DNA of 64,000 bases from Anaerolineae bacterium. Its GTDB lineage: Bacteria > Chloroflexota > Anaerolineae > CG2-30-64-16. A model generated the notes under the pieces. It searched no databases. It saw only the letters and a program-made list of their open reading frames with translations, and had not been told where the DNA came from. This document shows positions 36,742-61,197 of this stretch, one piece after another (position 1 is the stretch's first letter; each line of letters opens with the position of its first letter). Location: assembly GCA_040772005.1 (NCBI GenBank), contig JAXGYZ010000011.1, forward strand, positions 45,228 through 109,227, in the 5' to 3' direction. Both the position numbers and the translations under genes were made by a program.

Positions 36742-37160
36742 CACTGCAGTACCTCCTCGACACGAATGTTATTTCTGAACCACTGCGACCTGTCCCCAAC
36801 CAGGAGGTGCTGAATCACTTACGGGAGCATCAGACCGAGATCGCGATCGCCGCTGTGGTCTGGCACGAGTTATGGTACGGCTGCAATCGGCTGCCGCCAT
36901 CATCCAAGCGCACAGCAATCGAGGCTTATCTCAAAGATGTGGTTGGTCGTGCGCTTCCGATCCTGGCGTATGACCAGCGAGCGGCGTCCTGGCATGCGGA
37001 GCAGCGGGCCCAACTGGCAAGGATTGGCAAGCTGCCACCATTTGCCGATGGACAGATCGCAGCCATTGCGGTCACGAATGGCTTGACACTGGTGACATTC
37101 AATCGCAATGACTATCTTTCCTTTCAAGGTCTGAGTTTGGAGGATTGGTATCAGGGCTGA
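36738..37160 (+). CDS. vapC: Type II toxin VapC (PIN-domain ribonuclease)
   Basis: LLDTNVISE (first acidic residue). 140 aa. C-terminal TFNRNDY motif. GTGA overlap with the antitoxin gene. Confidence 0.8.
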   Translation: MTLQYLLDTNVISEPLRPVPNQEVLNHLREHQTEIAIAAVVWHELWYGCNRLPPSSKRTAIEAYLKDVVGRALPILAYDQRAASWHAEQRAQLARIGKLPPFADGQIAAIAVTNGLTLVTFNRNDYLSFQGLSLEDWYQG

Positions 37161-37311
37161 AAGTGGGGACGCGGTTCTGTGTTACGCTGCGGCGCGTGGA
37201 GTAAACCCCCTCTGGTCGAAAGTCGGTTGCATGTTCGAATGCCTCGTGCTATGTTTGATTTGCACAGCACGGGGAAATGAGTCGTTTGGGCATCAAGAAG
37301 GAGATACTCGG

Positions 37312-38796
37312 TTGCTATCAGCGGTCGAACAGAAGAGACTGCAAATCTCAAAAAGCACCGACGCCAGGAAAAAATCGCGGCTCGGTCAGTTCTTTACGCC
37401 CGAAAGAACTGCTGCGTTTATGGCCGGGCTGTTCCCGGATGGAAGCGGTCTTTGTCGCCTTTTGGACGCAGGAGCCGGGATCGGTTCGTTATCGGCAGCT
37501 TTCTTGGATAGATGGCGGGATGGCGGTTTTCACTTTCAGCGCGTTGAAGTGGAGGCTTTTGAGCTGGATCACGATTTGATTGCGCCCTTATCGCAAACGC
37601 TGGATAGGTATAGCTATAGGAGCGATTTTTCCGGCAGTATCTACCAAGAAGATTTCATTCATGCTGCGGCTGAATCTCTGTCCGGCAATCTGTTTGCGAG
37701 ATCCTTGGAAGGCTATACGCACGCAATTCTAAATCCACCTTATAAGAAGATCAATAGTGATTCATCCCATCGGTTGGCTCTGCGCCGTATCGGCATTGAG
37801 ACGGTGAATTTGTATTCTGCCTTTGTGGCGCTGGCTGTGGCCGTGGCCACGCCCGGCGGGCAGATCGTGGCCATTATTCCGCGCAGTTTCTGCAATGGTC
37901 CATACTACCGCCCGTTCCGCGACTTCATCCTTGAGCGGGCGGCCATCAGACACATGCACCTGTTTGAATCGCGCAGCAAGGCTTTTAAGGATGATGAGGT
38001 CTTGCAGGAGAATATGATCATTCGCTTGGAGCGTGACGCTCAACAGGGGAAGGTGACGGTTTCGATTTCAACCGATGACACTTTCTTTGACCTTGTGACC
38101 CATGAACATCCGTTTGACCGGATTGTGTTTCCGGATGATCCCGAGCGGTTCATCCATGTCCCCACCACGACTGAGAAAAGTGCCATCGAACTGTCAACCG
38201 CCGTGCGCTGCTCGTTGAATGATATCGGTATTGAGGTGTCGACCGGGCCGATAGTCGATTTCCGCTTGAAAGCGCACCTGCGCGACATGCCTGAGGCTGG
38301 CGCCGTCCCCCTAATCTATCCCGGACACTTGCGCATGACCGGGATGGTGTGGCCCGCGCCAGGCTCGAGGAAGCCGAACGCGATCATGCGCAACGACGAG
38401 ACGGAAAAGTGGCTTTACCCGAACGGGTTTTATTGTGTGGTCCGCCGCTTCTCGTCGAAAGAGGAAAAGCGCCGCATAGTAGCCAGCGTGGTCGATCCGG
38501 CCGCATTTGGCGGTCATTCCGTTTTGGGTTTTGAGAACCATATTAACTTGTTTCACGAGAACAAACACGGTTTGCCCGAACTGCTGGCCCGTGGGCTGGC
38601 CGTGTTTTTGAACACGACCGCCGTAGATGAGCATTTCCGGCGCTTCAACGGCCACACACAGGTCAATGCTACTGACCTCAGGCTGATGAAGTACCCGAGC
38701 CGTGATGCCTTGTTCCGGGTTGGCGAGTGGGCCATGCAGCAAGAAATGCTCACGCAAGACCAGATCGACGCCCAGCTAGGAACCCTGATCGTATGA
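37312..38796 (+). CDS. N6-adenine DNA methyltransferase, PstI/BsuBI-type (Eco57I-like gamma class)
   Basis: LGQFFTPE, LLDAGAGIGSL (SAM motif I), AILNPPYKKI (motif IV). TTG at 37312 lies 8 nt after AAGGAG; the start is uncertain. Confidence 0.8.
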   Translation: MLSAVEQKRLQISKSTDARKKSRLGQFFTPERTAAFMAGLFPDGSGLCRLLDAGAGIGSLSAAFLDRWRDGGFHFQRVEVEAFELDHDLIAPLSQTLDRYSYRSDFSGSIYQEDFIHAAAESLSGNLFARSLEGYTHAILNPPYKKINSDSSHRLALRRIGIETVNLYSAFVALAVAVATPGGQIVAIIPRSFCNGPYYRPFRDFILERAAIRHMHLFESRSKAFKDDEVLQENMIIRLERDAQQGKVTVSISTDDTFFDLVTHEHPFDRIVFPDDPERFIHVPTTTEKSAIELSTAVRCSLNDIGIEVSTGPIVDFRLKAHLRDMPEAGAVPLIYPGHLRMTGMVWPAPGSRKPNAIMRNDETEKWLYPNGFYCVVRRFSSKEEKRRIVASVVDPAAFGGHSVLGFENHINLFHENKHGLPELLARGLAVFLNTTAVDEHFRRFNGHTQVNATDLRLMKYPSRDALFRVGEWAMQQEMLTQDQIDAQLGTLIV

Positions 38797-39746
38797 CCGA
38801 CCAGAATGACTACATTGGGGCTGCACAGCAAATCATCGTTTCCTTGGGCCTGCCTCGTGCACAGCAGAACGAGCGTTCCGCCCTGTGTCTGCTGGCCCTC
38901 CTGAACCTCACGCCGGGCAAAGCATGGGCCGACGCGGGAAATCCGCTTGTGGGCATCACCCCGATTATGGATTGGGCACGGGAGCACTACGGCAAGGAAT
39001 ACGCGCCCAACACCCGCGAGACATTCCGCCGCCAGTCCATGCACCAGTTTTGCGACGCTGGCGTGGCCCTCTACAACCCGGACAAGCCCGACCGTCCGGT
39101 GAATAGCCCGAAGGCGGTTTATCAGATCGAACCTGCCGCGTTAGCTCTGCTGCGTACCTTCGGCACTCCGGCATGGCATGATAACCTCGCTGCCTATCTG
39201 GCTCGACGTGAGACATTGGTAGCCAAGTATGCCAGGGAACGCGTACAGAGCCGCGTCCCGGTTGAGATTGCAGCCGGTCAGCGGATCACTCTCAGCCCGG
39301 GAGAGCATAGCGAATTGATCCGGGCAATCATCGAGGACTTCGCCCCGCGCTTCGCGCCGGGTAGCGTGCTGGTCTATGTCGGCGACACGAGCGACAAATG
39401 GGGTTACTTCGACGCCGTCCTGTTGGCCGGTCTGGGTGTCGAGGTGGATACACACGGCAAGATGCCCGATGTGGTGCTGCACTACACCGCGAAAAACTGG
39501 CTGCTGTTGGTTGAATCGGTCACCAGCCACGGGCCGGTCGATGGCAAACGGCACGTCGAGCTCGCCAAGTTATTTGCCGGCTCGACCGCGGGACTCGTCT
39601 ATGTGACTGCCTTTCCTAACCGGGTCACTATGGGCCGCTATCTTGGCGAAATCGCTTGGGAAACCGAGGTGTGGGTAGCGGATGCGCCATCGCACCTGAT
39701 TCACTTCAATGGCGCGCGCTTTCTGGGCCCGCACGGGGCGACGTAA
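38793..39746 (+). CDS. Type II restriction endonuclease, BsuBI/PstI family
   Basis: ATGA overlap with the methylase stop. ERSALCLLALL...ITPIMDWAREHYGKEYAPNTRETFRRQSMHQFCDAGV...NPDKPDRPVNSPKAVYQI matches my recollection of the family N-terminal domain. 317 aa. Confidence 0.65.
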   Translation: MTDQNDYIGAAQQIIVSLGLPRAQQNERSALCLLALLNLTPGKAWADAGNPLVGITPIMDWAREHYGKEYAPNTRETFRRQSMHQFCDAGVALYNPDKPDRPVNSPKAVYQIEPAALALLRTFGTPAWHDNLAAYLARRETLVAKYARERVQSRVPVEIAAGQRITLSPGEHSELIRAIIEDFAPRFAPGSVLVYVGDTSDKWGYFDAVLLAGLGVEVDTHGKMPDVVLHYTAKNWLLLVESVTSHGPVDGKRHVELAKLFAGSTAGLVYVTAFPNRVTMGRYLGEIAWETEVWVADAPSHLIHFNGARFLGPHGAT

Positions 39747-39826
39747 CCCTGGAGACAGTTGGCAGCTTTGCTGTGCGATGTGGATGACGGTCGCACGATA
39801 GCCGGATCGCGACTGAACCGCAACAC

Positions 39827-39862
39827 AAAAAGGAGGGCCCCCCATGGGGACCCTCCTTCTTT
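39827..39862. terminator. Bidirectional intrinsic terminator
   Basis: aaaa-aggagggcccc-ccat-ggggaccctcct-tcttt, with an A-run on one side and a T-run on the other, between convergent genes. Confidence 0.65.
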
Positions 39863-39916: not shown

Positions 39917-42328
39917 TTACTTGAACAGCGGCATGACCTCGTCGAACACCGATTGGAGGGTTTCCAGTGGCGCTTCGCCAGCCTCGACGAAGTAGCCGCC
40001 CATGTCCATGTGCTCTTTCAGCATGGCGAACCCGCCGGCACTGTCTTCCTTGATCAACTCAGCCCGGTGGCAGCCGCCGCAGGCGCGGGTGGCCGGCCCG
40101 GTGACGTAGGACGGAACGCTCTCGATGTCCCGGTCCAGCGTCTCGTTGTCGTCGGATGCCGACAGCAGCCCCGGCAGCGACTTGCCCTGATCCGGTACCT
40201 CGTAGGTGCCCGGGAAGTGGCAGGATTCGCAGTTCGTGTTGGCGTGCGTCGGATACGGGAACGCGATGTGGTGCTCATAGTGCATGGCCTGCACCGGGTC
40301 GCCGAAGTCGATGTCGCTGATGTCGAAGGCCTGACCGGAGTGGATCGCGTGCGCATAGGAATCCAGCGACCGCGACTGCATCTCCAGGTGTGAGCCGCCC
40401 GACTTGGTGACATGGCACATCCGGCAGGCAGTCACACTGCCGCCGTAATCCGGGCTGTGGAAGTTCGTGGCGAGCGCGGCATGGCAGTTCTGGCACTTTT
40501 CGATGTCCGCGATAGGCTTGAAGTACTTGTCGTCGAACGCGTTCGCGGCCAGGTCGAATGTCCTGGTGGTCGCGTCGATGGCGAGTTCCTGCTCATCGAC
40601 CACGAGGGCCGGGAGCACACCCACTTCCACGCGCTTCACGGTGCCATTCGCGATGAGGTCCTTCCAGGGCGACAGGTCCGCGGTGATTTCCCACTGGCCG
40701 CCCTCCGCGGAGACTGTCTTCATGCGCGGATGCTCGGCGCCGACCTCGAATTCGAGGGTGCGCATGTCCTTGCTGTCGATCGTGCCGTCGCCATTGTCAT
40801 CGAACAGCCGCTCGTGCGCGCCGACCACGAAGTCCTTCGTGTTCCAGCCGTACAGGCCTACCAGCACGCTCGGCACGATGTCGGCGGCGTCCACGCCTTC
40901 GATGTCCGGTGATTCCGCTGCGCTGAACTTCACGCTCAACGTATCGCCGTCCAGCATCGCGCTCTCGATGGTGACCGAGATGGCGTCGGAATAGCGGATG
41001 CCGTCTGCGGTGTAGATCGTGGTGTCGTAGCCGGTGTGGGCCACGCTCCAGGCGGGTGCCATCTTGCCTTCGCCGTGGCAGGTCGAGCAGTCAGTTGTCG
41101 CCAGGTCCATGTTGGCGTGCGGGCCGGTCAGGAGGGTCTTCAGCGCCAGGCCGGTCGTGTCGTAAGCCGGGTCTTCGCCCTCGGCGGCCTCAGCCTTCGC
41201 GCCCGTCATGGGGTGGCAGCTACGGCAGGTCGTGATGTTGAAGGTGGCATCCGTCAACACAGCGTCGAGTTTGCCTGCATGGCAGGTGACGCAGTTCGCC
41301 ATGGATTGCGGATACGGGAATTCCATGGCATGCGACATGTGCACGTCGTTCATGACGGACGGGTTGTACGCGAACTGCTGGTGCTGCTCTTCGGTCAGCT
41401 CGACTTCGCCGGCCAGGAACTGCGCAGCCAGCGGCGGATCCTCAACCAGGAGCTGCCATTCGAAGTGCTCGCCGGTGCCGTTATCCAGGTGGCAGGCCTT
41501 GCAGGTATAGAAGTCGGTGGCCGAGTCATTATCGACCTGCCCGTAGATGTAGCTGTGCTTGAGATAGGGCTGCGTGTGGCACAGCTCGCAGCCATCGTTG
41601 TTGGCCGGCGAAACATAGTCGACGCCCGCGCCGGTCTCGAGCACGGCTGCGAACGGGAACCTGTTCTGGTCGACGCGCGTGCCCGGAATCCGCCGGACGG
41701 TTTCGTCGCGGCCGTAGATGACGATGAGGCCGTTGACGCCGCTGATGTCGGTGTAGTCAACGAAATCCTCGGCGCCTGCTTCCTTCTCGACCAGCGTGCT
41801 TGTCACGTTGCCGGCGCCGTCCCAGGTCAGGTTACCCTTGAGGGCCAAACGCTCTGCCGGCGGGTCGAACTGGAACTTGCCGTCCGCGTAGGGCACGAAG
41901 TAGATGCTGATGTTGTCAGCCTGCTTCGGGTCGAACGGTTGGCCGTTCTTCGTCATCTTGAAGGTGATGGTGGTCGTATCGGGTGCGGACGTGAAGGCAT
42001 AGGCCACATCCGTGACCTTGATCACGCCGTCCTGGTACAACTCATCGTAGGACGCCTGGTGCTTTTCACCAGCGTCCTTGTGGCAGATCGCGCAGGTTTC
42101 AGGCGGGGTCTTCGTGTCGGCGACCATCGTCACGCCGGCTTCGCCAGCGGGACCGGCGGGGCCAGCGGGACCGGCAGGACCGGCAGGACCGGCGGGGCCA
42201 GCAGGGCCTGCGGGACCGGCAGGACCTTGCGGGCCGGCAGGGCCGGCGGGGCCAGGAGTGCCCGCGCAGGCCACGAGGGTGGTCAAGACGACCACCAGAG
42301 CGAGGAGGACCAGAAGTGTTCTTTTCAT
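39917..42328 (-). CDS. Decaheme c-type cytochrome lipoprotein with an N-terminal collagen-like (Gly-X-Y)14 stalk
   Basis: Ten CxxCH motifs (CAICH, CELCH, CKACH, CVTCH, CRSCH, CSTCH, CQNCH, CRMCH, CESCH, CGGCH). Signal peptide with lipobox [16 protein letters not shown](GPA)9GEA follows directly after the lipobox. ATG at 42328 is preceded by GGAGAGAAAGG. Confidence 0.9.
42134..42262 (-). repeat. Collagen-like triplet repeat coding region (14 x Gly-X-Y, mostly GPA)
   Basis: 9-nt periodic ggaccggca/ggg units on the plus strand, in frame with the cytochrome. Confidence 0.9.
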
Positions 42329-42397
42329 GTTTGCCTTTCTCTCCATTGAGGGTGGTGGGTTGGAGATAGTGGTCTGAATGTAAGGAGGACCACATAG

Positions 42398-42426: not shown

Positions 42427-42476
42427 AACCAGAAAATGAGGTAAGTGCTCAGCGCTACCTCGCAGCCCAAGATCAG

Positions 42477-42523
42477 CACGCCCACAACCCCGATTTCTCG
42501 GAGAAACCGGGGTTGTGGGCGTG
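42477..42523 (-). terminator. 16-bp-stem hairpin downstream of feoB
   Basis: cacgcccacaaccccg ... cggggttgtgggcgtg. Confidence 0.55.
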
Positions 42524-42616
42524 CACAGTTGCAAAACGAGGGAAATCGCTCGGGGCCGATATATGAATTTTAGGCATCTGGGGCTATTGTGACAGCGGCC
42601 CGAAGCGGCAAGGCTA

Positions 42617-44626
42617 TCAGAACGACAGCAGCCACCGTGCGATGTGATAGATGACCGTGCCCAACGCCAGCGAAATGACCAGCGGCACCGCGATGCTGAG
42701 GGCCGTCCAGCCCCAATTGCGCGTCTCCTGCCGGATCGCGGCCACCGTCGCGACGCACGGCACGAACAGCATCTGCACGGCCATGAACGCCAGTGCCGCG
42801 GCCGGCGTCACGATGCCGGTCAGCGTCTCCGCGAGTCCTTCTCCGGCTTGCCCGGCGCCATACAGGACTCCCAGTGTGGCGATGACGTTTTCCTTGCGGA
42901 CGAAGCTCGTCACCAGCGCGACCATCAACTGCCAGCTCAGGCCCATCCACGCGCCGACCGGTTCGAGCAGCCGGCCAAACGCGGCGAGGTAGCTCGTTTC
43001 CACCTGTCCCGTCGGCAGGTTGAGCAGCGCCCATAGCACCACAGAGACCACCAGGATGATGCTGCCGGCCACGCGCAGGAAGTCAACCAGCCGTTCGTAG
43101 ATGGAGCGGAGAATCGCGCGCGCATCGGGCGGGTGATACAGCGGCAGTTCCATGATGAAGGCGATGTGCTCGCCGCCCAGCAGCAGCTCGTGCAGCAACA
43201 GGCCCACCAACGCCATGATCACGACGGCCAGCGCCATCAAGGCCAGCGCCACCCAGGGTGCGTGCGCAGCAAAGAAGATCGGCGTCAGGATCGCCACCAC
43301 GCTCATGCGCGCGGGGCAGGGCACGAAGGGGGCCAGGAGAATCGTCAACAGCCGCGCCTTCGTGGAGTCGATGGTGCGGGCCGCCATGACGGCGGGCACA
43401 TTGCAGCCGAAGCCGAGAAACAGGGGCAGGAAGCTCTTGCCGTGCAGGCCCATGAAGTGCATGAAGCGGTCGGTGACGTAGGCCGCGCGCGCGATATAGC
43501 CCACGTCTTCCAGCAGCCCCAGCGCCGCGAAGAAAATCAGCAGGATGGGCAGGAACGTCAGCACCAGCCCGACCCCCGCGATGATCCCGTCGGCTACGAG
43601 GCTGCCGACCCAACCCGGTGCGCCGGCCAGCGCGGCACGCGCCCACGCCGCACCCGCCTGCACCAGGTGTGTATCCAGGAACGCCTGGAGCGGCGTGCCG
43701 ATGGCATAGGTCAGCCAGAACGTCAGCCCCAGCACCGCAGCCAGGATCACCAATCCCACGACCGGGTGTGTCGCCAACCGGTCGATGCGGCTGGTGAGGG
43801 ACACCCGCCCCGGCCGCGGCCGCGTGACTGCCGCGCGCACCATCCGCCCGATCCACTCGTAGCGGCCGCTCGCGACTGCCAGCACGGCGTCTTCGTGCCG
43901 CATCAGTAGGGCGTGCAGGGTCGTCCACCCGTCGCCCAGCCGCGGCCGCATCAGCGCGGTGATTTCGGCATCGCCTTCCAGCAGTTTCAGCGCCACCCAG
44001 TGTTCGGGATAGGGCGCGGGTACGTGCCCGGTAATGAGCCGGCTCACCTCCGCCAGCACAGCCGCGTGGTCCGTGCGAATCTCCGGTCGCCGCGGGGACA
44101 AGCTGGCGGGTTGGCGTGCCGTATGGGCCGCGGCTTCTATCAGCTCACGTACTCCCTGGTTGCGGGTTGCCACCATGGGGACTACCGGCACGCCCAGCGC
44201 CGCCTCCAGTACGTGCGGCTCCACTTGCAGTCCTTCCTGCGCGGCAACGTCCATCAGGTTGAGGCCCACCACAATGGGAATCGGCAGATGCAGCAGCTCG
44301 GCCAGCAGATAGAGGTTTCGTTCGAGCGCCGCGGCGTCGACCACTACGGCCACGACATCCGGCCGCTGGCAGATGATGTAGTCCCGCGCGATGCGTTCTT
44401 CTTCTGAGTTGGCCGTGAGGCTGTAGATGCCTGGCAGGTCCACCACGCGCAGCCGCGTCCCGTTCTGACGATACTCGCCGATGCGTTGCTCGCTGGTCTT
44501 GCCGGGCCAGTTGGCGACGTGCTGCGATAGCCCCGTGAGCATGTTGAAGATGATCGACTTGCCCACGTTGGGCTGGCCGACCAATGCGACTGTGAGGGGG
44601 ACTGGCTCAACCACCTTGTGCGCCAT
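42617..44626 (-). CDS. feoB: Ferrous iron transporter FeoB
   Basis: G-domain VALVGQPNVGKS, DLPG; nucleoside-recognition and gate membrane domains. ATG at 44626. Confidence 0.92.
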   Translation of the reverse strand: MAHKVVEPVPLTVALVGQPNVGKSIIFNMLTGLSQHVANWPGKTSEQRIGEYRQNGTRLRVVDLPGIYSLTANSEEERIARDYIICQRPDVVAVVVDAAALERNLYLLAELLHLPIPIVVGLNLMDVAAQEGLQVEPHVLEAALGVPVVPMVATRNQGVRELIEAAAHTARQPASLSPRRPEIRTDHAAVLAEVSRLITGHVPAPYPEHWVALKLLEGDAEITALMRPRLGDGWTTLHALLMRHEDAVLAVASGRYEWIGRMVRAAVTRPRPGRVSLTSRIDRLATHPVVGLVILAAVLGLTFWLTYAIGTPLQAFLDTHLVQAGAAWARAALAGAPGWVGSLVADGIIAGVGLVLTFLPILLIFFAALGLLEDVGYIARAAYVTDRFMHFMGLHGKSFLPLFLGFGCNVPAVMAARTIDSTKARLLTILLAPFVPCPARMSVVAILTPIFFAAHAPWVALALMALAVVIMALVGLLLHELLLGGEHIAFIMELPLYHPPDARAILRSIYERLVDFLRVAGSIILVVSVVLWALLNLPTGQVETSYLAAFGRLLEPVGAWMGLSWQLMVALVTSFVRKENVIATLGVLYGAGQAGEGLAETLTGIVTPAAALAFMAVQMLFVPCVATVAAIRQETRNWGWTALSIAVPLVISLALGTVIYHIARWLLSF

Positions 44627-45419
44627 GATCTGCCTTTTCGGGAATGACCAGGACATGGGCGGCCTCGCCGCGGCCCAGCACCAGCCGCGTATCGCGCACG
44701 AGGACGATGACCGGCCCGTTACTCGGGTTCTGTGCCACTTCCAGGCGCGTGCCCGGCGTCAGGCCCAGTGCTGCCAGCCGCGCCATCAACTCATGCCCGC
44801 CCGTCAGCGCGGCGACGCGGGCGGAGCTGCCGGTCGGCAGCGCGCGCAGGGCGAGCGACTCAGCCGGATTGACGGCGTCCGGCTGCGCAGCCGCCACGGC
44901 ATCCCCAGGGCGCAGGGAGCGGCGGAGGATGTTGACGACGCGGGAGCGCGGGCCGGTCTTACGCCGGGCCTCCGGTGCAGCCGGCGGCGGCTGGACGGTC
45001 ACGCGACAGTTCGCGCAGGTGCCCAGCAGGTCCACCTGCGCATCGGCAATCGTGTAGTCCAGCTCGCGGCCTACGGCCTCCTTCAGTTGCTCGATCAGGG
45101 GGCTGGTGAACTCGACGACCGAACCGCAGTTCCGGCAGACGAGATGGTAGTGCGTGGCAGGCGCTTTGAGTTCATAATGGTGGTGATCTTCGCCCAGGTG
45201 TTGCTCGTCCACGAGGTCGAGGTCGCGGAGCAGGCCCAGAGTGCGATAGACCGTGGAGAGGTTCAGCCGGGGATCCCGCTCCTGCGCGAGGCGATAGAGC
45301 TCGCGCGCGTCCAGATGGCCGCCGTGCTCCTGGAGCAGCTCCAGGAGCAGGCGACGCTGGTCGGTCAGCCGCCGGCCTGACCCGCGCAAGGTATCGCGCA
45401 ACTCAGATTGAGGAGACAT
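44607..45419 (-). CDS. Fur-family metalloregulator fused to a C-terminal FeoA domain
   Basis: N-terminus LTDQRRLLLELL...HLDARELY...LNLSTVYRTLGLL...HHHYELK..HYHLVCRNCG...GTCANC (Fur with a CxxC/CxxC zinc site). Pro/Arg linker. C-terminus LRALPTGSSARVAALTGG...RLAALGLTPGTRLEV...PVIVLVRDTRLVLGRGEAAHVLV (FeoA SH3-like). One uninterrupted frame, with its 3' end overlapping feoB by 20 nt. Confidence 0.75.
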   Translation of the reverse strand: MSPQSELRDTLRGSGRRLTDQRRLLLELLQEHGGHLDARELYRLAQERDPRLNLSTVYRTLGLLRDLDLVDEQHLGEDHHHYELKAPATHYHLVCRNCGSVVEFTSPLIEQLKEAVGRELDYTIADAQVDLLGTCANCRVTVQPPPAAPEARRKTGPRSRVVNILRRSLRPGDAVAAAQPDAVNPAESLALRALPTGSSARVAALTGGHELMARLAALGLTPGTRLEVAQNPSNGPVIVLVRDTRLVLGRGEAAHVLVIPEKADHGAQGG

Positions 45420-45437
45420 GCGGGGAACCTCCACTTG

Positions 45438-45460
45438 TTGCAAATGCCACTTATTCGCAA
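45438..45460 (-). promoter_or_regulatory. Fur-box-like palindrome TTGCGAAT-N7-ATTTGCAA
   Basis: 7/8 matching inverted arms that abut the -10 element of the fur-feoA promoter, between it and the SD. Confidence 0.5.
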
Positions 45461-45488
45461 GTGTAGGCTCCCCTGGTCGATGTGTCAA
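45460..45488 (-). promoter_or_regulatory. Sigma70-type promoter of fur-feoA-feoB
   Basis: TTGACA-17 nt-TACACT on the minus strand. Confidence 0.55.
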
Positions 45489-45517
45489 ATCGAGGGGCAC
45501 GATTTCCCAATGTAGCT

Positions 45518-45587
45518 GGAGTCGAGGCTTTAGCCGGTCAGGTCGCCCGTATGCGTACACGACCCATCCGGCTAAAGCCTCGACTCC
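45518..45587 (-). repeat. 70-bp palindromic intergenic repeat, copy 4 (core inverted)
   Basis: ggagtcgaggctttagccgg ... ccggctaaagcctcgactcc. The core is the reverse complement of the copy 1 core (gtgtacgcata). Confidence 0.9.
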
Positions 45588-45615
45588 AGCCAGCCGTTGC
45601 ACTTGGCACTGTGGA

Positions 45616-49381: not shown

Positions 49382-49389
<8 letters not shown>
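48721..49389 (-). CDS. ctaE: Cytochrome c oxidase subunit III
   Basis: HHFDD..QQHEA..LGMWVFL..E.LFFG, YWHFVD.VW. Confidence 0.88.
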
Positions 49390-51051
<1,662 letters not shown>

Positions 51052-51055
<4 letters not shown>

Positions 51056-52011
51056 TGAGCACCCCCTTGTTCTGCGCCCAACTCCTTGATGTAGGCGATG
51101 ATCTGTAACACCTGGTCTTCGGTCAACTGCCCCTGATACGGCGGCATTACCGGCTGGTAACCTTCGACCACCTGGGTGGCCGGTTCGAGGATGGACTTCC
51201 GCAGATACGCCTCGTCACGGGTGACGGTTTCACCACTCACCAGCTTGGCTTCTTGTCCGAAGATGCCGGCGAGCGCCGGGCCGATGGCGGCCGTGCCGTC
51301 GAGCTTGTGACACGCGACGCAGCCGGTCCGGTTGAACAATTGCTCGCCGGCCTGTGCAGCAGAGACAGGCTGCCCACCTGTGGCGCCCCCTCCGCTGGCC
51401 CAGGCGAGGTACTCTTCTTCCGGCATCACGATCACCTGGCCGGTCATGCCTGAGTGCTCCGTGCCGCAGTATTCGGCGCAGAACAGGTGATAGTTGCCCG
51501 TCTCCGTCGCCTCAAACCAGACGGTCGTGTAGCGCCCCGGCAGCACATCCGTCTTGATGCGGAATGCAGGGACGTACATGCTGTGGATCACATCCTCGGA
51601 GGTCATGGTGAGCTTGATGGGCCGATTGACGGGCACGTGCAGGTCGTTGACCTCGATCTGGCCCGTATCCGGATGTTGGAATTTCCACATCCACTGCTTG
51701 CCGATGACGTAAATCTCCATGGCATCGGACGGCACGTCGTACATCTGGAAGAAGAGGCTGCCGGCCCATAAGAACACGCCCAGGAAGGCGATCAACGGGA
51801 CAATCGTCCATGTCAGTTCCAGCTTGTGGTGCGTCTCGATCGGGTTGGTGCGATCGGCGTCTTTGCCGCGGCGGTACTTCATGACGAAGAAGAACACCAC
51901 GGTGGTGATACCGATGATGACCAGCGCGCTGACGGCCACCAGGAACAGAAAGAGCGTATCTACGCGGCCCGCATGGGCGGTTGCCTGGTCAAGCGTCCAC
52001 TGGGTATTCAC
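51052..52011 (-). CDS. ctaC: Cytochrome c oxidase subunit II with a C-terminal cytochrome c domain (caa3 type)
   Basis: CuA site HSMYVP...[12 protein letters not shown]; heme c site CVACHKLDG. Confidence 0.92.
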
Positions 52012-52949
52012 GACTGGCTCTCCTTCTGGTCATCAACCTGCTCCTCGACCGGCAAAACCGGCGGCTCCGACTGGCGCGGTTTTGAACGTGCCAGCACCAG
52101 CACCATCGCACCGAGCCCGAACATCGTCAGCAGGGCGGCATACTTGAGGATCTCCCGGATGGCGACGGTGTACTTGCCGCGCGTCGGGTCATAATGGAAG
52201 CAGCGCAAGAGAAGCTGATCCACCGCACTGCCGATCTTGCCGGCGGAGGCATCCACCAGCGCGAGCTTCAGGTCGCGCGGGGAAAACTCCAGCCCGTAGA
52301 GATACTTTGAGATCCGGCCGCCCGGGGTCATGACCAGGATGCCTGCAGGATGAGCATACTGGTCGGACTTGGGATCGTAGACATAATGGAAGCCGGCGGT
52401 GTCTGCCAGCCGCACGATTGAGTCTTCCGGTGCAGTCAGGAAGTGCCAGCCGTCCTGCGAGCCCCAGCGGCCATAGCTGGCGATAATGGCGGCTTTGGCC
52501 GCGGTGGACTGCTCCGGCGTCTCGCGCGGGTCGATGCTGGCGACCACCACGTCGAACTCCTTGCCCACCTCGACCTGCATGGTGCGCAGCGATTCGCTCA
52601 GCCCGTGCAGGATGATGGGGCAGAGGTTGGGGCAGTTGTAATAGGTGAACACCAGGATGGCGGGCTTCTGGCCCAGGTACTGGCCGAGCGTCACGCGCCG
52701 CCCTTGCTCGTCGATCATGGGAACTTCCAGCGGCATCTGGCTGTCCAGGTTCTGATCGAACGACACCTGGTTGAGCACAGCTTCGTCGGAAGTGTGATCT
52801 GTGTGCGAATCATCCTGCGCATACACTGTGCCGGCCGGCATTGTGAGCAGCGATATCAGCAGGGCTAGCAGTATAACAAAGCCGACCCGGTGGTTGCCCG
52901 TCGATCGGCCCTGGTGGGATGCCTGTCGCTTTGTGTCGAACATAACCAT
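52008..52949 (-). CDS. SCO1/SenC copper chaperone with an extra C-terminal TM tail
   Basis: FTYYNCPNLCP (CxxxC) and a downstream His in a thioredoxin-like fold. N-terminal and C-terminal TM segments. Confidence 0.8.
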   Translation of the reverse strand: MVMFDTKRQASHQGRSTGNHRVGFVILLALLISLLTMPAGTVYAQDDSHTDHTSDEAVLNQVSFDQNLDSQMPLEVPMIDEQGRRVTLGQYLGQKPAILVFTYYNCPNLCPIILHGLSESLRTMQVEVGKEFDVVVASIDPRETPEQSTAAKAAIIASYGRWGSQDGWHFLTAPEDSIVRLADTAGFHYVYDPKSDQYAHPAGILVMTPGGRISKYLYGLEFSPRDLKLALVDASAGKIGSAVDQLLLRCFHYDPTRGKYTVAIREILKYAALLTMFGLGAMVLVLARSKPRQSEPPVLPVEEQVDDQKESQS

Positions 52950-53045: not shown

Positions 53046-53771
53046 TCAGTCCTGGCCGACCGCCGGCAGCAGGCCCTCCGTAACCAGCGTCATGGCGCGG
53101 GTGATGGGGATGCGGGCCACGCCCGCCGCTTCATCCACCCAACCATAGCTGTTGAGCGTCGCCTGTGCCGCCGTCTGGTAGCGGTCGAGCGCACTTACCG
53201 GGTTGACGCGCATCTCGACTGCGGCGGGCGGGGCCGCGGTTGCGATGGGCGAGCCGCCCTGCGACTGCGTCTCCGGCGAGCTGGAAAAGACGTTGGTGAG
53301 CAGGCTGACCGCAATGAGCGCGATGATGATCAACCCGCCGACAATGGCCCCGGCCGCAACCAGGATGTTCAGTCCCACATCGGACGTTTCATGCTGCGCC
53401 TCGGTCGTGCCGGAGGGCGCGCCGTGGGGGATGGCCTGGGCGTGCGAGTCATCGCGCACCGCGTCCACGTCGTGCTGGCTGCGGTGGATTTCCCCGCGTT
53501 CGTGGGGCTGCGCCACCCCAGGCGGCGCCGCCTGCGCAACCTGCTGACCGGCGGCCTGTTCTTCGAGGGCGCGTTGTTCGGGTGCAGGCTGTTCTGCCGC
53601 GAGCCGGTCCGCGCCGAGCCGTTCGGCAGTTTCCGGGTCACTGACGCCCCGGTCGCGCGCTTCCTCCTCGGTGAGCTTGCGTTCAGGCGCGGGGCCGCGG
53701 AAGTAACCGGATGGCTGGTGTCGCCCGCGGGGCTCACGCTGCGGATCGGTCGAATCAGGCTTATCGCTCAT
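53046..53771 (-). CDS. Single-pass membrane protein with a long disordered N-terminus, in the position of ActG (function unknown)
   Basis: ATG overlaps the actF 3' end. About 130 aa are rich in P/E/R/A/Q. TM segment ILVAAGAIVGGLIIIALIAVSLL. Conserved-looking tail YGWVDEAAGVARIPITRAMTLV. Confidence 0.5.
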   Translation of the reverse strand: MSDKPDSTDPQREPRGRHQPSGYFRGPAPERKLTEEEARDRGVSDPETAERLGADRLAAEQPAPEQRALEEQAAGQQVAQAAPPGVAQPHERGEIHRSQHDVDAVRDDSHAQAIPHGAPSGTTEAQHETSDVGLNILVAAGAIVGGLIIIALIAVSLLTNVFSSSPETQSQGGSPIATAAPPAAVEMRVNPVSALDRYQTAAQATLNSYGWVDEAAGVARIPITRAMTLVTEGLLPAVGQD

Positions 53772-54963
53772 GCCGCACAATCCTGTTGTGATGTGGTTCG
53801 GAAGCCACAGTGTTGTCCTGCATGGGTGCAGGCAGGCCCGCAGGCAGCAGCGGCGCCCGCGCCAGGTTCCAGACGAAGAAGGCTGTCCATAAGCCCCCGA
53901 TGCCGAGCAGCGCGGTCAGGTGGGGCCAGACTGCACCGACGCCGGCTGTGCCCAACGACGGGACGATCAGCCAGAAAGTGTCGAGGCCGCGCATCAGCAC
54001 CAGGAAGGCAGCGATGGCTGCCAGCAGCCGGCGGTTGCGCTTGACATCGCGGAAGATGAGCAGGACGAACGGCAGCGCAAAGTGAAGCACCAGGATGGCG
54101 ATGGCGATGTACTTCCAGCCGCCGGCCATGCGCGCCAGGTACCACGGCACCTCTTCGGTGATATTCGCGCCCCAGATGAGCAGGTATTGGGAGAAGGACA
54201 GATAGGCCCAGATCATGACGAAGGCCAGCATCAGGCTGCCCAGGTCATTGAAGCGCCGGGGTGAGACCGCTGCGTCGAGCGGCGGCCAGTCCGACGCCCA
54301 GGCTGCCAGGGCCACTGACAGCGCAAAGGCGCCCAGCATCATGCCCATCGTGACCATCAGCCCGAAAATGCTGGACATCCAGTGCGGCTCCAGCGACATC
54401 ACCCAGTCGAACGCGGCAAAGCTCGCAGTGAGCGTCACGGCCAGCAGTCCGCCCGCGCCTATGCCCCGCAGCGTGCCCGCGATGTTCACGTCGCCCGTCT
54501 CGTCGAGCTTGAGCGAGAGGGCGCCCGTCCGATACGCGAAGAACGTCCACACCGCAAAGTAGATGACCGTGCGGATGATGAAGAAGGGCACGTTGAGATA
54601 CGGCTGCTTGTGCTCCAGGACGGGGTCACCGATGACGTGCGCCGGGTCTGCCCATGAGTACAGCGTCTTCATGCCTAAGATGATGGGGATGAAGAGCACG
54701 AGCATCAGCGGCAGGGTGCGCGCGCCTGCCTCCACGAACCGCTGGATGGGTGCGCCCCAGCCGGAGCGGGTGAGATGTTGCAGCAGCGCCAGGAGCAGGC
54801 TGCCGATGCCCATGCCCGTCCAGAAGACGAACGCGTACAGGTAGGCCGGGTAGGCGCCGGGGATGCCCAGGAACGCGCCTGCCAGCGTCGCGATCAGCCC
54901 CACCGCGCCGACCACGAGTGCGGCGGGCATCATGCGGCGGAAGATGCCTTGTGGTGTCATCAT
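53761..54963 (-). CDS. actF: Alternative Complex III subunit ActF (NrfD-like membrane subunit)
   Basis: About 10 TM helices, in the position after actE, paralogous in appearance to actC. Confidence 0.75.
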   Translation of the reverse strand: MMTPQGIFRRMMPAALVVGAVGLIATLAGAFLGIPGAYPAYLYAFVFWTGMGIGSLLLALLQHLTRSGWGAPIQRFVEAGARTLPLMLVLFIPIILGMKTLYSWADPAHVIGDPVLEHKQPYLNVPFFIIRTVIYFAVWTFFAYRTGALSLKLDETGDVNIAGTLRGIGAGGLLAVTLTASFAAFDWVMSLEPHWMSSIFGLMVTMGMMLGAFALSVALAAWASDWPPLDAAVSPRRFNDLGSLMLAFVMIWAYLSFSQYLLIWGANITEEVPWYLARMAGGWKYIAIAILVLHFALPFVLLIFRDVKRNRRLLAAIAAFLVLMRGLDTFWLIVPSLGTAGVGAVWPHLTALLGIGGLWTAFFVWNLARAPLLPAGLPAPMQDNTVASEPHHNRIVRHER

Positions 54964-55547
54964 TGGGTCGCCCCTCCGAGTTGCTGCAGGTCCTCCGCCG
55001 GCAGGGCGTCGGCAGGCGCCGCCTGGCTGAGTTGCAAGGCCCGCACGTAGGCGGCGATGGCCCAGCGGTCATCTACATCGGGGATCTGGCTGGCGTACGG
55101 CTGCATCCGGCCAAAGCCGTTGGTGATGACCTGGAAGAAGTAGCCGGGCGCCGCGGTGCGCAGGCGGTCCTGGTGGAAGGTCTGTGGCGCAGGGAACCCG
55201 CGCTGCACGACCATGCCGTCGCCCGCGCCGGTGTAGCCGTGACAGGGCGTGCAGTAGATGTCGTACTCCTGGCGGCCGCGCTCCAGCAGGTCCGTGGTCA
55301 GCTCGAACGGGAACTCGGCTGCCGGCGCGCCGTTGAACTGGCCCGTATCGCGCACGTCGCTGGTGCGCAGTTGGCCCTGTGCGACTGACCCTTCGACCTG
55401 CGGCCGCGCCGACTGCCCGTCGGCAAAGAACGCGCTGGGCTCCAGCGGGTCATAACGCGGCTGGTCGGCCATCGCCTGGCAGCCCGTCAGCGCCACAAGC
55501 GCAACCAGGAGCAGGATTGAAGATTTCGGAAATCTGCAATCTGTCAT
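54960..55547 (-). CDS. actE: Alternative Complex III monoheme cytochrome c lipoprotein ActE
   Basis: Lipobox LTGC; single CTPCHG site; ends with a cytochrome c fold. Confidence 0.75.
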   Translation of the reverse strand: MTDCRFPKSSILLLVALVALTGCQAMADQPRYDPLEPSAFFADGQSARPQVEGSVAQGQLRTSDVRDTGQFNGAPAAEFPFELTTDLLERGRQEYDIYCTPCHGYTGAGDGMVVQRGFPAPQTFHQDRLRTAAPGYFFQVITNGFGRMQPYASQIPDVDDRWAIAAYVRALQLSQAAPADALPAEDLQQLGGATQ

Positions 55548-55558
55548 CTGGAATCGTT

Positions 55559-56137
55559 TCACGGCAGCACCTCGTGCACGCTGGCCGGGGCCAGGTTCTC
55601 CAGGAACCGGCGAGTCTGGGTCATGTCGAAGCGCGGGTCGGTCGCCTCGATCGCCAGGAAGAAGCGATCCTGGCTGGCGCGGGCGAATTCGGCCACGTTG
55701 AACAACGGGTGGTAGGGCGCAGGCAGGCCGTTGAGCACGATCATCGCCAGCACGCCCGTCAACGCCGCCAGCAAGACGGTCGTCTCGAAGGTGACGGGCA
55801 CCCACATGGGCACGCTGTTGAGCGGCTTGCCGCCGATGTTGATCGGGTAGTTGATGACGTGCACCCAGTATTGGAGCGCGAAACCGCCGACCAGCCCGGC
55901 GATGCCGCCCAGCAGCATGAGCAGCGGGATGCGGCTCTTGCGGAAGCCGACTACCTCCGATAGGCCTTCCACCGGAATGGGGGTGTAGGCGTCCAATCGG
56001 CGGTACCCTTCGGCGTAGGCGCGGCGCGCGGCCTCCAGAATCGCGTGTTCGTCCACGAACTCGGCCACGAGGCCGTAGGGCCGCACCGCGGCCTCGGCCA
56101 CCTCATGCGCCAGATCGTGGGCCACATGCTCCGTCAT
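55559..56137 (-). CDS. actD: Alternative Complex III subunit ActD (DUF3341)
   Basis: YGLVAEF...AY.P.PV, then two TM helices. About 190 aa, between actC and actE. Confidence 0.75.
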   Translation of the reverse strand: MTEHVAHDLAHEVAEAAVRPYGLVAEFVDEHAILEAARRAYAEGYRRLDAYTPIPVEGLSEVVGFRKSRIPLLMLLGGIAGLVGGFALQYWVHVINYPINIGGKPLNSVPMWVPVTFETTVLLAALTGVLAMIVLNGLPAPYHPLFNVAEFARASQDRFFLAIEATDPRFDMTQTRRFLENLAPASVHEVLP

Positions 56138-57530
56138 TCGACCTTCCCTCCTGTCTGATGCACCAGCTCGCGCGTCTCAGCCATCGAGATGAACGGCAGG
56201 AAGCGGATGAACAGGAATATCAGCGTGCCAAACAGCCCCAGCGTACCGATGAACGTGGCGTAGTCCCAGATGGTCGGCGTGTACATCGCCCAGGAAGAGG
56301 GCAGGAAGTCGCGGTGCAGGCTGGTGACGACGATGACGAAACGCTCGAACCACATGCCGAAGCTGATGACGAGTGAAATGCCCCACAGCCAGAGCGGATT
56401 TGTGCGGAACCGCTTGAACCAGAGAAGCTGCGGAATGATGACATTGCAGGTAATCATCAGGGCGAATATCCAGCCGTAAGGCCCGGTGATCCGGTTGAGC
56501 ATCATGAAGCCTTCGTACTCGTTGCCGCTGTACCAGGCGGTGAACAGCTCCATCGCGTAGCCGTAGGCCACGACCAGCCCGGAGGTCAACATCACGATCG
56601 CCATATTGCGCAGATGTCGGTCGGTGATGAAGTTCTCCATGTGATAGTACTTGCGCAGCGGGATGGCGATGAGCAGCACCATCGCAAACCCCGCGTAAAT
56701 TGCGCCCGCCACGAAGTAGGGCGGGAAGACGGTCGCGTGCCACCCGGGAATCACGCTCACGGCGAAGTCGAAGCTCACGATGCTGTGGACGGACACGACG
56801 AGCGGCGTGGCCAGCGCGGCCAGGAGGTAGTACAGGTCCTGATAGCGCTTCCAGTGGACCGCGGAGCCGCGCCAACCCATCGACAGGATGCCGAAGGTCA
56901 CGCGGGTGAAGGTGCTCTTGGCGCGGTCGCGCAGCGTCGCCATGTCGGGGATGAGGCCGACGAACCAGAACAGGAGCGAGACCAGGCCGTAGGTGGCGAT
57001 GGCGAAGAAGTCCCACATCAGCGGGCTGCGGAACTGCGGCCAGTAATCCAGCGTGTTCGGGTAGGGCACCAGCCAGTAGAAGTACTGGGGCCGGCCCAGG
57101 TGCAGGATGGGGAACAGCGCCGCGCAGGCGACTGCGAACAGCGTCATGGCCTCGGCAAAGCGGTTGATGGACGTGCGCCACTGCTGGCGCAGCAGGAGCA
57201 GGATGGCCGAGATGAGCGTGCCCGCGTGGCCGATACCGATCCACCACACCAGGTTGATGATGGCGAAGCCCCAGCCCACCGGGATGTTGATGCCCCAGAT
57301 GCCGACGCCGCGAATGAAGAGCCAGGTGACCGCGCCGAGGAACACCATCAACAACAGGAAGGCGATGGCTAACCCCAGCAGCCAGCCGCGTTGGAAGCCG
57401 CGGCGCAGGACGACGGAGCCGATCTGCTCGTTGACCGACTCGAAGGTTTGGCCGGGCTCGATGACCGGCACGAGGTCCGCCCGATCCATCGGCGGCCTGA
57501 TCAGTTCCTTGCGGATAGGCTGCTCATGTA

Positions 57531-57534
<4 letters not shown>
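56134..57534 (-). CDS. actC: Alternative Complex III quinol-interacting membrane subunit ActC (NrfD/PsrC-like)
   Basis: 466 aa, polytopic, directly after the Fe-S subunit with overlapping stop and start. Confidence 0.8.
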
Positions 57535-60515
<2,981 letters not shown>

Positions 60516-60540
60516 ATGAATCTCTTCCCCTCGGATGGCT

Positions 60541-61197
60541 CTATCGATGGCAGGTCGAGCAGTCAGTTCTTGCGTTCACCTGATACTCGACGACAAGCTG
60601 TCGCCCGAGCTCAAGCTGGTTGGCCGGCGGCACCCAGTTCACGTTGAAGACCTCTGCGCGCGGCCGGAGGTACTTCTCCGGTGCGCGGTGGCAGTCGAGG
60701 CACCAGTTCATCAACAGGGTGCTTTCCTGCCAGGTGAGGGCCATATCCTGGACCGGGCCGTGACAGGTGGTGCAGCCGACGCCTTTCGCCAGGTGGGCGC
60801 TGTGGTCGAAGTACGCAAAGTCGGCCAGGTTGTGGACGCGCACCCACTGCACCGACTGGCCTGTCCGGTAGGCTTCGCGGATAGGTTCCAGGATGGCCGC
60901 GGTGACGTGCAACTGCGAATGGCAGTTCATGCAGGTGGCGATGGGGGGGATGCCCGCAAAGCGGGATTCCTCGACTGCGGTGTGACAGTAGCGGCAATCG
61001 AGGCCGACGTTGCCGACGTGGGTGCGGTGAGCGAACTGCACCGGCTGCTCCACGTGGACGCGCTGCTCGGTGTTATAAGGCGAGCGGATGTACGCAAAGC
61101 CGGTTGCCACGAGGACAACAACCAGCAGCAGCCCACCCACAATCGAAGCCCGAGCAATGACGTTTGCGCTGGGACCGAAGATCTGTCGCATTGGCAC
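60541..61197 (-). CDS. actA: Alternative Complex III pentaheme cytochrome c ActA
   Basis: N-terminal TM anchor and five CxxCH motifs (CRYCH, CMNCH, CTTCH, CLDCH, CSTCH). Confidence 0.88.
   Translation of the reverse strand: MPMRQIFGPSANVIARASIVGGLLLVVVLVATGFAYIRSPYNTEQRVHVEQPVQFAHRTHVGNVGLDCRYCHTAVEESRFAGIPPIATCMNCHSQLHVTAAILEPIREAYRTGQSVQWVRVHNLADFAYFDHSAHLAKGVGCTTCHGPVQDMALTWQESTLLMNWCLDCHRAPEKYLRPRAEVFNVNWVPPANQLELGRQLVVEYQVNARTDCSTCHR

Follow-up and report, generated by a model that had tools for sequence, protein, structure and literature searches.

A predicted lipoprotein decahaem cytochrome with an MtrC/OmcA-like head and a collagen-like stalk in an Anaerolineae genome, and the recurrence of this anchor-stalk pairing in other cytochromes

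The closest described relatives of the protein considered here are the outer-surface decahaem and undecahaem cytochromes of Shewanella, namely MtrC, MtrF, OmcA and UndA (PDB 4lm8, 6qyc, 3pmq, 4lmh and 3ucp). For OcwA of Thermincola potens and OmhA of Carboxydothermus ferrireducens, a similar role as that proposed here, a multihaem cytochrome placed at or in the wall without a porin-cytochrome conduit, has been put forward, and OcwA is related to the octahaem nitrite/sulfite reductase-type cytochromes (PMC7829351). In Scl1/Scl2 of Streptococcus, BclA of the Bacillus exosporium, Lcl of Legionella and Bucl8 of Burkholderia (PMC7682875), a functional domain is held away from the cell surface by uninterrupted Gly-X-Y repeats, as is proposed for the present protein. 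A 64,000-nucleotide stretch of the genome of an Anaerolineae bacterium (GenBank assembly GCA_040772005.1, contig JAXGYZ010000011.1, positions 45,228 to 109,227 of the forward strand; the whole stretch is hereafter called the window) was found to encode a cytochrome with ten haem-binding motifs, a predicted lipid anchor and a collagen-like stretch between the two. An earlier note, made from the letters alone, had already described it as a lipid-anchored decahaem cytochrome on a collagen-like stalk. The analysis reported here leans, by a modest degree, towards a lipoprotein decahaem cytochrome of the MtrC/OmcA fold that is carried on a membrane-tethered spacer, most likely a trimeric triple helix of ~12 nm, by which the electron-transfer head is positioned.

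The cytochrome gene and the parts of its product are located as follows, with residue numbers counted throughout from the in-frame ATG at 42346, that is, on the 809-aa form of the open reading frame (ORF) 39917..42346, minus strand. Confidence values (pLDDT) are those of an AlphaFold2 (AF2) model.

39917..42328, minus strand: coding sequence of the lipoprotein decahaem cytochrome, 803 aa from the ATG at 42328
42266..42328, minus strand: predicted type II (lipoprotein) signal peptide and lipobox Cys, read from the sequence
42128..42262, minus strand: collagen-like stretch, the putative stalk; residues 29-73; Pfam PF01391; imperfect 9-bp repeat
42095..42127, minus strand: junction of 11 residues leading from the last triplet to the haem 1 Cys
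42038..42094, minus strand: N-terminal haem-1 module; CAICH at residues 85-89, H96, helices 85-88 and 92-103
41633..42022, minus strand: haem-free beta-domain I; residues 109-238; pLDDT mostly 85-95; full-length alignment to MtrC/OmcA structures
41039..41599, minus strand: pentahaem domain II; residues 250-436; CxxCH at 253, 282, 352, 374 and 420; PF22113 and PF14522
40553..40981, minus strand: haem-free beta-domain III; residues 456-598; pLDDT 90-98
39920..40513, minus strand: tetrahaem domain IV; residues 612-809; CxxCH at 618, 641, 706 and 756
39826..39857, minus strand: intrinsic-terminator-like hairpin, GGAGGGTCCCC...GGGGCCCTCC followed by TTTTTG, ~60 nt past the stop codon

No other ORF in this part of the window has many haem motifs. 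The true start is likely the second ATG, at 42328 (MKRTLLVL...), because the GGAG-rich site GGAGAGAAAGG is located 5-16 nt 5' of it and because the two closest relatives of the cytochrome, L008 and L009, both begin with MKRTL; the coordinates given in the earlier note, 39917-42328, agree with this choice. A promoter scan returned a single weak site, not above chance expectation. From the favoured start, the signal consists of MKR, a hydrophobic core and L-V-A-C (20 residues and then the Cys), the lipobox Cys being residue 27 (21 from the second ATG; codon 42266-42268), as the earlier note had also read it. LVAC follows a basic n-region and a hydrophobic h-region and matches the lipobox consensus [LVI][ASTVI][GAS]C, which places the cytochrome, as a predicted lipoprotein, in the class of signal peptidase II substrates.

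Two residues past the lipobox Cys begins a run of 14-15 uninterrupted Gly-X-Y triplets, consisting of 12 residues, (GPA)9, GEA and an in-register GVT. The 14 triplets counted previously were recovered, and GVT, as a fifteenth, extends the run to nt 42128. The Pfam Collagen model (PF01391) scored 30.6 bits on the cytochrome, above its cutoff of 27.2, and the stalk is the only run of at least five triplets in the 64-kb window that was counted as true in a real ORF, so it is not to be ascribed to chance. The second run in the window scan, on the plus strand at the same place, was a mirror reading of the stalk DNA, and the third was a Gly-rich five-triplet stretch inside a 1084-aa oxidoreductase ORF. 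The NCBIfam models of collagen adhesins remained below their cutoffs (SclB 29.8 vs 325, SclA 26.7 vs 400 and Lcl 21.7 vs 500), with matches confined to the repeat region of the cytochrome.

The head contains ten CxxCH sites, at residues 85 / 253, 282, 352, 374, 420 / 618, 641, 706 and 756, in the 1+5+4 layout noticed before, and neither CxxxCH nor CxxxxCH variants were found in the window cytochrome. The haem-free gaps are of 168 and 198 residues, so that the former estimate of roughly 150-170 held for the first and was too short for the second. Since all 21 Cys of the cytochrome are accounted for by 20 haem Cys and the lipobox Cys, a CX8C disulfide is absent. Pfam PF22113 (MtrC/MtrF domains II/IV) matched in two stretches with 86.3 bits against a cutoff of 30, the best of them covering residues 612-769 (profile positions 3-132 of 176), and NCBIfam TIGR03507 (OmcA/MtrC decahaem) aligned from residue 253, in domain II, to residue 783 with 110.8 bits (E = 6.3e-32), missing its curated cutoff of 209.3. 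The AF2 model, built with 80 homologues in the alignment, had an average pLDDT of 78.6 and a predicted TM score (pTM) of 0.73, and its domains were ordered as haem-1 helices (85-103), beta (109-238), pentahaem (250-436), beta (456-598) and tetrahaem (~612-808). When this model was compared with the PDB by Foldseek, the 15 best matches were all MtrC, OmcA, UndA or MtrF, full-length, with E values from 1.5e-15 to 4.5e-12, identities of 12-14% and target-normalised TM values of 0.43-0.58; the match that followed was an MtrC fragment, and none of the 17 PDB matches with E ≤1e-3 was OcwA, NrfA or an octahaem reductase chain. Searches of the PDB sequences with phmmer and with the family profile found no MtrC or OmcA, solely collagen peptides and chance matches, and the kinship to solved structures is therefore visible solely through the Pfam/NCBIfam profiles and the comparison of folds. 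As PF22113, the partial TIGR03507 match, the AF2 model and Foldseek agree, the head (735 residues) is predicted to be a divergent cytochrome of the MtrC/OmcA four-domain fold. The resemblance to MtrC and OmcA that had been suspected from the layout of the haems is thus borne out; the wider comparison that the earlier note proposed, with MtrC, OmcA and OcwA, gave matches to the first two and none to OcwA.

Nine of the CxxCH sites are invariant in the 80 homologues, and in the tenth C756 is invariant, with C759/H760 present in at least 90%. C85, C88, H89 and H96 of the haem-1 module are invariant across the same sequences, in which 12 invariant and two near-invariant His were also found beyond the CxxCH motifs. 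These 14 His would be enough to be available as distal haem ligands. Beta-domain III holds an EF-hand-like acidic loop (40757-40810, minus strand; residues 513-530), with D516, D520, G521, D527 and E532 invariant across the 80 homologues and weak, sub-threshold Pfam EF-hand matches; it may be a structural Ca2+ site.

The mature part of the cytochrome, used as query, retrieved 907 relatives, and the best 120 of these showed 61-68% identity. The named ones among the best 120 were almost all metagenome-assembled genomes (MAGs) of Anaerolineae or Caldilineae, together with one labelled Gammaproteobacteria, and the JGI annotation of the relatives often reads OmcA/MtrC family. In a scan of one genome per species, 224 species were found to have a relative, mostly Anaerolineales, Caldilineaceae and other Chloroflexota, and these relatives place the window organism in the class Anaerolineae. 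The pairing of anchor and stalk was evaluated on 179 non-redundant N-termini of this decahaem family, with at least five triplets taken as a stalk. A lipobox was present in 76 of them, 66 with and 10 without the five triplets, and was absent from 103, of which 7 had and 96 lacked the triplets (Fisher p = 9e-30). On a neighbour-joining tree the trait needed at least 21 changes, against ~52 when the labels were shuffled, which argues that the stalk was gained or lost many times and does not go back to a single inherited event. Stalks in the family comprise 5 to 20 triplets, the modes being 9 and 11, so that the homologues of variable triplet number, for which a search had been recommended, do exist. 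A Pro/Ala/Thr/Glu-rich spacer of 40-79 residues was found in 8 of the 10 lipobox forms without triplets, and the forms without a lipobox (n = 103) have a short link with a median of 23 residues; no lipid anchor is predicted for the 96 forms that lack lipobox and triplets alike. The predicted membrane-anchored forms thus carry a long spacer and the unanchored ones none, and the preferred spacer appears to hold a strict collagen register. Judged from the sequences, the lipid anchor together with the collagen-like stretch is a selected and recurrent architecture.

The register itself was evaluated in 68 homologues with at least seven triplets (790 triplets in all), which always form one uninterrupted block. 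The block starts -2 to +2 residues from the anchor Cys in 51 of the 64 sequences having such a Cys, and ends 8-14 residues before the haem 1 Cys in 62 of the 68 (exactly 11 in 35). Among the triplets of the 34 stalked members in the first homologue set, 74% have Pro at X, and the residue at Y is usually Ala, Glu, Pro, Gln or Thr. Pro stabilises host-guest triple-helix peptides more than any other X residue (PMC8233474). Four homologues (L043, L057, L074 and L076) have an N-terminal transmembrane helix and 8-27 triplets, with no lipobox, and L081 is similar; the MAG labels of these five (Thaumarchaeota/Bathyarchaeota) are unconfirmed, and Pfam on the flanking genes did not settle them.

The same stalk was found on other lipoproteins. 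With the N-terminal 78 residues of the window cytochrome as query, the matches listed were all shorter than 140 aa, and among them 63 of 120 short proteins have a lipobox Cys with Gly-X-Y starting no more than 25 residues after it, in most cases immediately; several of the 63 represent pieces of other c-type cytochromes. A search with a 69-aa cytochrome fragment gave one fragment only. An HMMER search with P0163, one of these short proteins, returned, among many plain collagens, a second lipoprotein cytochrome family of ~365 aa with five or six CxxCH and one conserved CX4CH (loci L088-L167; P0244, P0254, P0258, P0266, P0279, P0286, P0291, P0324, P0337, P0366 and P0388), in which the lipobox Cys and the Gly at three-residue spacing are invariant across sequences of 37-55% identity. 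At least 583 species-representative genomes, mostly of Gemmatimonadota, Bacteroidota, Ignavibacteria and Marinimicrobia, encode a member of this family. A motif filter recovered 50 of 80 loci, 46 of them with a recognisable N-terminus; at least six triplets were present in 44 of the 46, 43 of which match the lipobox pattern, and the triplets directly after the lipobox Cys number 6-14, with a mode of 11. One member, P0266, is a 797-aa fusion with more haems. Gemmatimonadota, Bacteroidota and Ignavibacteria are taken as diderm phyla. Since a second, unrelated cytochrome family has the same stalk in such phyla, the stalk is not specific to monoderms, and its interpretation in the earlier note as a monoderm alternative to the porin-cytochrome conduit needs revision. 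On the evidence of both families, the stalk is better described as a general module of predicted lipoprotein cytochromes. In addition, P0130, P0150, P0190 and P0233 are N-terminal fragments of c-type cytochromes (GCPACH, VCRHCH, SCLSPCHGF), each with a lipobox and a collagen-like stalk, which suggests several independent recruitments of the module. Outside the cytochromes, P0122, P0126-P0135, P0143-P0146 and others are lipoproteins of 100-137 aa with a lipobox Cys, ~15-25 triplets and a Cys-rich C-terminal domain of ~50 residues, the motif of which is ...LRVVTG..C...DE.LVS..C..GAPDG..C....TGLCMRK.

Beyond the cytochrome, the window encodes the following respiratory modules.

53761-61197, minus strand: alternative complex III (ACIII), with pentahaem ActA, ActB, NrfD-like ActC and ActD
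within 49382-52949, minus strand: SCO1 and then the caa3-type oxidase, after the ACIII genes
49382-52011, minus strand: caa3-type oxidase, with COX2 carrying a fused cytochrome c domain, and COX1

The ACIII cluster also contains a cytochrome c, possibly ActE, and a sixth ORF that has no Pfam match and is possibly ActF. With ACIII and a caa3-type oxidase in the window, the organism can be expected to respire oxygen. Directly upstream of the cytochrome gene, across a gap of 270 bp, lies feoB (42617-44656, minus strand), which is preceded by a single ORF (44607-45602, minus strand) with a Fur-family regulator domain fused to a FeoA domain. The order ComM, VapBC (in L008 also restriction-modification genes), cytochrome, FeoB, Fur/FeoA and LeuRS is common to the window, L008 and L009, and these two closest relatives are the only ones among 86 loci in which feoB and fur-feoA adjoin the cytochrome gene. 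Between feoB and the cytochrome gene, a 24-nt inverted repeat (42476-42524) is 96% complementary, with 1 nt between its arms, and could serve as a regulatory site or as a terminator that lacks a T-run. No Fur box of the E. coli-type consensus was found upstream of the cytochrome gene. Iron uptake was rejected as the main explanation on these grounds, the Feo adjacency being limited to the two closest relatives and an E. coli-type Fur box lacking. Between ComM and the cytochrome gene, on the plus strand (36451-39746), lie a VapBC pair, a BsuBI/PstI-type restriction enzyme and an Eco57I-like methylase; the restriction-modification pair is present in L008 and missing from L009 and therefore looks like a mobile insertion. 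The 1084-aa ORF mentioned above (29918-33172, minus strand) is a fusion of NuoE/NuoF-like domains (2Fe-2S thioredoxin-like, FMN, 4Fe-4S) with a GltD-like pyridine-nucleotide-disulphide oxidoreductase module.

A conserved operon was likewise rejected, as seven gene tables and a BLAST of the window proteins against all loci show no shared neighbourhood. Occasionally, a homologue is found beside an ACIII-like or bc-type module or beside further multihaem cytochromes: such cytochromes, with 4-16 haems, occur at about 19 of the 87 loci read, an ACIII-like operon that includes extra cytochromes immediately precedes the homologue in genome CP070639, and another homologue lies 5.4-8.9 kb downstream of genes for cytochrome b, a Rieske protein and cytochrome c. 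At two other loci a cation-efflux (CDF) gene stands beside the homologue. No MtrA or MtrB was found by Pfam on the window neighbours or in the seven homologue-locus gene tables, whole genomes not having been searched.

In the reading favoured above, the protein would be exported through Sec and lipidated at the lipobox Cys, and its N-terminus would sit in the outer leaflet of the cytoplasmic membrane, a placement suggested by the reported absence of Lol and Bam genes in Chloroflexota (Lol and BamA in Chloroflexales, PMC7332563; BamA in Ardenticatena, PMC5808234). The 14-15 triplets would span nearly the whole distance from the anchor to haem 1, and the spacer would thus set the distance of the head from the membrane. 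Bacterial collagen-like repeats such as those of Scl and BclA form trimeric rods with a rise of ~0.29 nm per residue, which for 42-45 residues would give a stalk of ~12-13 nm. The spacer would most likely be a homotrimeric triple helix of the collagen type, registered by three adjacent lipid anchors that may substitute for a trimerisation domain. Such a helix would hold the head at a fixed height, and the head would exchange electrons with partners located within the wall layers or outside them, such as Fe(III)/Mn(IV) minerals, humics, flavins or other cytochromes. As collagen rods are insulating, the stalk would only position the head, and the delivery of electrons would require other carriers or a movement of the head. 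Quinol-oxidising modules might supply the head by way of other c-type cytochromes, or the head might pivot on its short junctions to receive electrons from them; the ACIII of the window and the ACIII-like or bc-type operons beside some homologues are candidate supply modules.

Several results weigh against this reading. The AF2 monomer model has low confidence in the stalk (pLDDT 35-39, below 50), no trimerisation or nucleation domain of the Scl V or BclA C1q-like type was found in the Pfam, NCBIfam and Foldseek results, and Shewanella proteins of the MtrC family are not known to be trimers. Fourteen triplets without hydroxyproline and with a single charged residue may melt below the growth temperature, and a triple helix is not required for the function of the head, given that Pro/Ala-rich linkers are interchangeable with the triplets. 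The function is also not simply transferable from MtrC, because the CX8C disulfide is absent and the TIGR03507 cutoff was missed, and most of the homologue loci read are solitary genes with no conserved neighbourhood. The main alternative is a monomeric, extended, polyproline-II-like flexible tether, on which the lipid-anchored head would shuttle between membrane-proximal donors and distal acceptors. Such a tether, which we consider unlikely without dismissing it, would fit the other lipobox members, whose low-complexity Pro/Ala/Thr/Glu-rich spacers are of similar length and stand at the same position, as well as the lack of a Pfam/NCBIfam trimerisation domain, the short, almost uncharged run without hydroxyproline and the lack of structure in the AF2 stalk; moreover, tandem duplication of a 9-bp unit alone would yield a three-residue periodicity. 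However, the Gly periodicity is unbroken over 790 triplets, even though their codons have diverged and their X and Y residues vary, and it is equally invariant in the second, deeply diverged family. The strong preference for Pro at X over Y is a triple-helix signature and not a generic property of linkers, and the run abuts the anchor Cys, a geometry suited to registering three chains. It is most improbable that the repeat or its length is an artefact of assembly or sequencing in a low-complexity, GC-rich region. Tandem 9-bp repeats do belong to a class of sequences prone to collapse or expansion, but the units of the stalk differ at synonymous sites (only 76% self-identity), with mixed codons (GGC/GGT, CCT/CCC/CCG, GCC/GCT/GCA) where the protein remains GPA, so that reads could be placed and the repeat is neither recent nor a collapsed perfect one. 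L008 and L009, which come from independent MAG assemblies (92-93% protein identity), share the stretch with one in-frame GPA triplet (9 bp) fewer and otherwise mostly synonymous differences, and more than 60 other assemblies have 5-20 in-frame triplets at the same position. The one-triplet indel shows what is, by all appearances, natural variation in repeat number, and the artefact against which the earlier note had cautioned is excluded as far as sequence can tell.

A further explanation, which we hold to be rather improbable, sees in the protein no terminal extracellular reductase and confines it to the envelope, between the cytoplasmic membrane and the outer layers, as an electron relay or store, as an Fe(II)- or electron-uptake oxidase feeding the aerobic chain, or as a ferric reductase for Feo uptake. 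The position of the gene 270 bp downstream of feoB and the fur-feoA fusion in the window organism and two close relatives is in line with it, as are the CDF gene adjoining the homologue at two other loci and the aerobic respiratory chain formed by the ACIII and caa3 oxidase of the window. The envelope itself could also accommodate such a role, since several layers lie outside the membrane in Chloroflexota (PMC13319060), and in the phyla taken as diderm that have the same stalk an anchored lipoprotein could be periplasmic. Nevertheless, the Feo adjacency is restricted to two of the 86 loci, feoB and the cytochrome gene are kept apart by the inverted repeat, an E. coli-type Fur box was not found, and the ~19 of 87 loci (about a fifth) in which the gene clusters with other large multihaem cytochromes, of 10-16 haems, resemble respiratory electron-transfer gene sets; in addition, the structural relatives are all cell-surface metal reductases. 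The layered envelope also weighs on the placement of the head in or beyond the wall. In Chloroflexota the envelope is built of several layers, which sometimes include outer-membrane-like ones, and cryo-electron tomography of Caldilineae and Chloroflexales has revealed peptidoglycan together with inner and outer layers and with coats that are S-layer-like or amorphous (PMC13319060, PMC7332563). A stalk of 12 nm may therefore end inside the envelope, and the former suggestion that the spacer is long enough to cross a wall or S-layer needs to be revised, as it need not reach the outside.

A broader proposal can be advanced tentatively, and with somewhat less than even confidence, namely that collagen triple helices starting at a lipidated Cys are a widespread and unrecognised standoff module that trimerises multihaem heads ~8-13 nm from the membrane. 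It would include repeated recruitment, by the decahaem cytochromes of Chloroflexota, by the Gemmatimonadota/Bacteroidota family and by several mono- and dihaem proteins, and the replacement of the lipid by a transmembrane anchor in the MAGs labelled archaeal (labels unverified). If this were true, the length of the stalk would be tuned to the geometry of the envelope and would determine how periplasmic or extracellular electron transfer is arranged in space. It is poorly understood how redox proteins are placed across wall layers in the absence of a classical outer membrane and porin-cytochrome conduit, a question for which the Chloroflexota serve as a leading case; sediments, soils and wastewater harbour abundant Anaerolineae, which have many multihaem cytochromes (bioRxiv 10.1101/2021.08.23.457424). 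For this positioning step, a lipid anchor with a collagen-like spacer of fixed length would be a concrete and testable structural answer, and also a use of bacterial collagen that is neither adhesive nor structural. Should both the triple helix and the ruler function hold, they would point to a broader module. The strict pairing of anchor and spacer, the variable number of triplets and the recurrence in a second family offer a comparative and experimental handle, in that stalk length can be compared with envelope architecture, and the arrangement can be adopted as it stands to display redox proteins at a set height over a membrane or an electrode.

These sequences are already contained in the databases, and some entries bear both Pfam domains. 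In the searchable full-text literature, no description was found of collagen-like repeats coupled with multihaem cytochromes or of lipobox-anchored bacterial collagens with redox cargo, and the papers found on cytochromes and electron transfer in Chloroflexota do not mention collagen. The earlier note had known of no described collagen-stalked multihaem cytochrome, and the same literature yielded none either. The parts are known, and it is their combination, an MtrC/OmcA-family cytochrome with a bacterial collagen-like repeat, that appears to be undescribed.

Compared with the MtrC/OmcA group, the window protein has in common the predicted lipoprotein nature, the ten CxxCH and the predicted beta-multihaem-beta-multihaem order, and this group provided the sole significant full-length structural matches of its head in the Foldseek search of the PDB. 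The differences are nevertheless considerable: identity is only 12-14%, TIGR03507 stays below its cutoff and the family profile finds no PDB sequence of the group. The haems of MtrC are distributed 5+5, whereas those of the window protein are arranged 1+5+4, with one haem ahead of domain I. In the Shewanella clade a CX8C disulfide in domain III is conserved and linked to redox-dependent flavin binding; the window protein has no such disulfide. It also has no MtrA/MtrB partner nearby, its host belongs to the Chloroflexota, without a classical outer membrane, and its anchor leads into a collagen-like stalk of 14-15 triplets. OcwA shares the proposed role and differs in fold family, no match of its type having been obtained for the window head, and OmhA is loosely bound and can be sheared off; a collagen-like stalk has been reported for neither. 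With Scl1/Scl2, BclA, Lcl and Bucl8 the window family shares a repeat number that varies, in those proteins between strains. Their anchors are an LPXTG motif, the exosporium basal layer or an outer-membrane barrel, whereas in the window protein the predicted N-terminal lipid abuts the first triplet; furthermore, they have dedicated trimerising domains and are adhesins or structural fibres, not redox proteins. Braun's lipoprotein Lpp of E. coli is an N-terminally lipidated trimeric rod that acts as a molecular ruler within the envelope. Its rod is an alpha-helical coiled coil, and Lpp lacks a cargo domain; its likeness to the window protein, a predicted lipid-anchored collagen-like stalk with a decahaem head as its cargo, is one of analogy only and not of homology.

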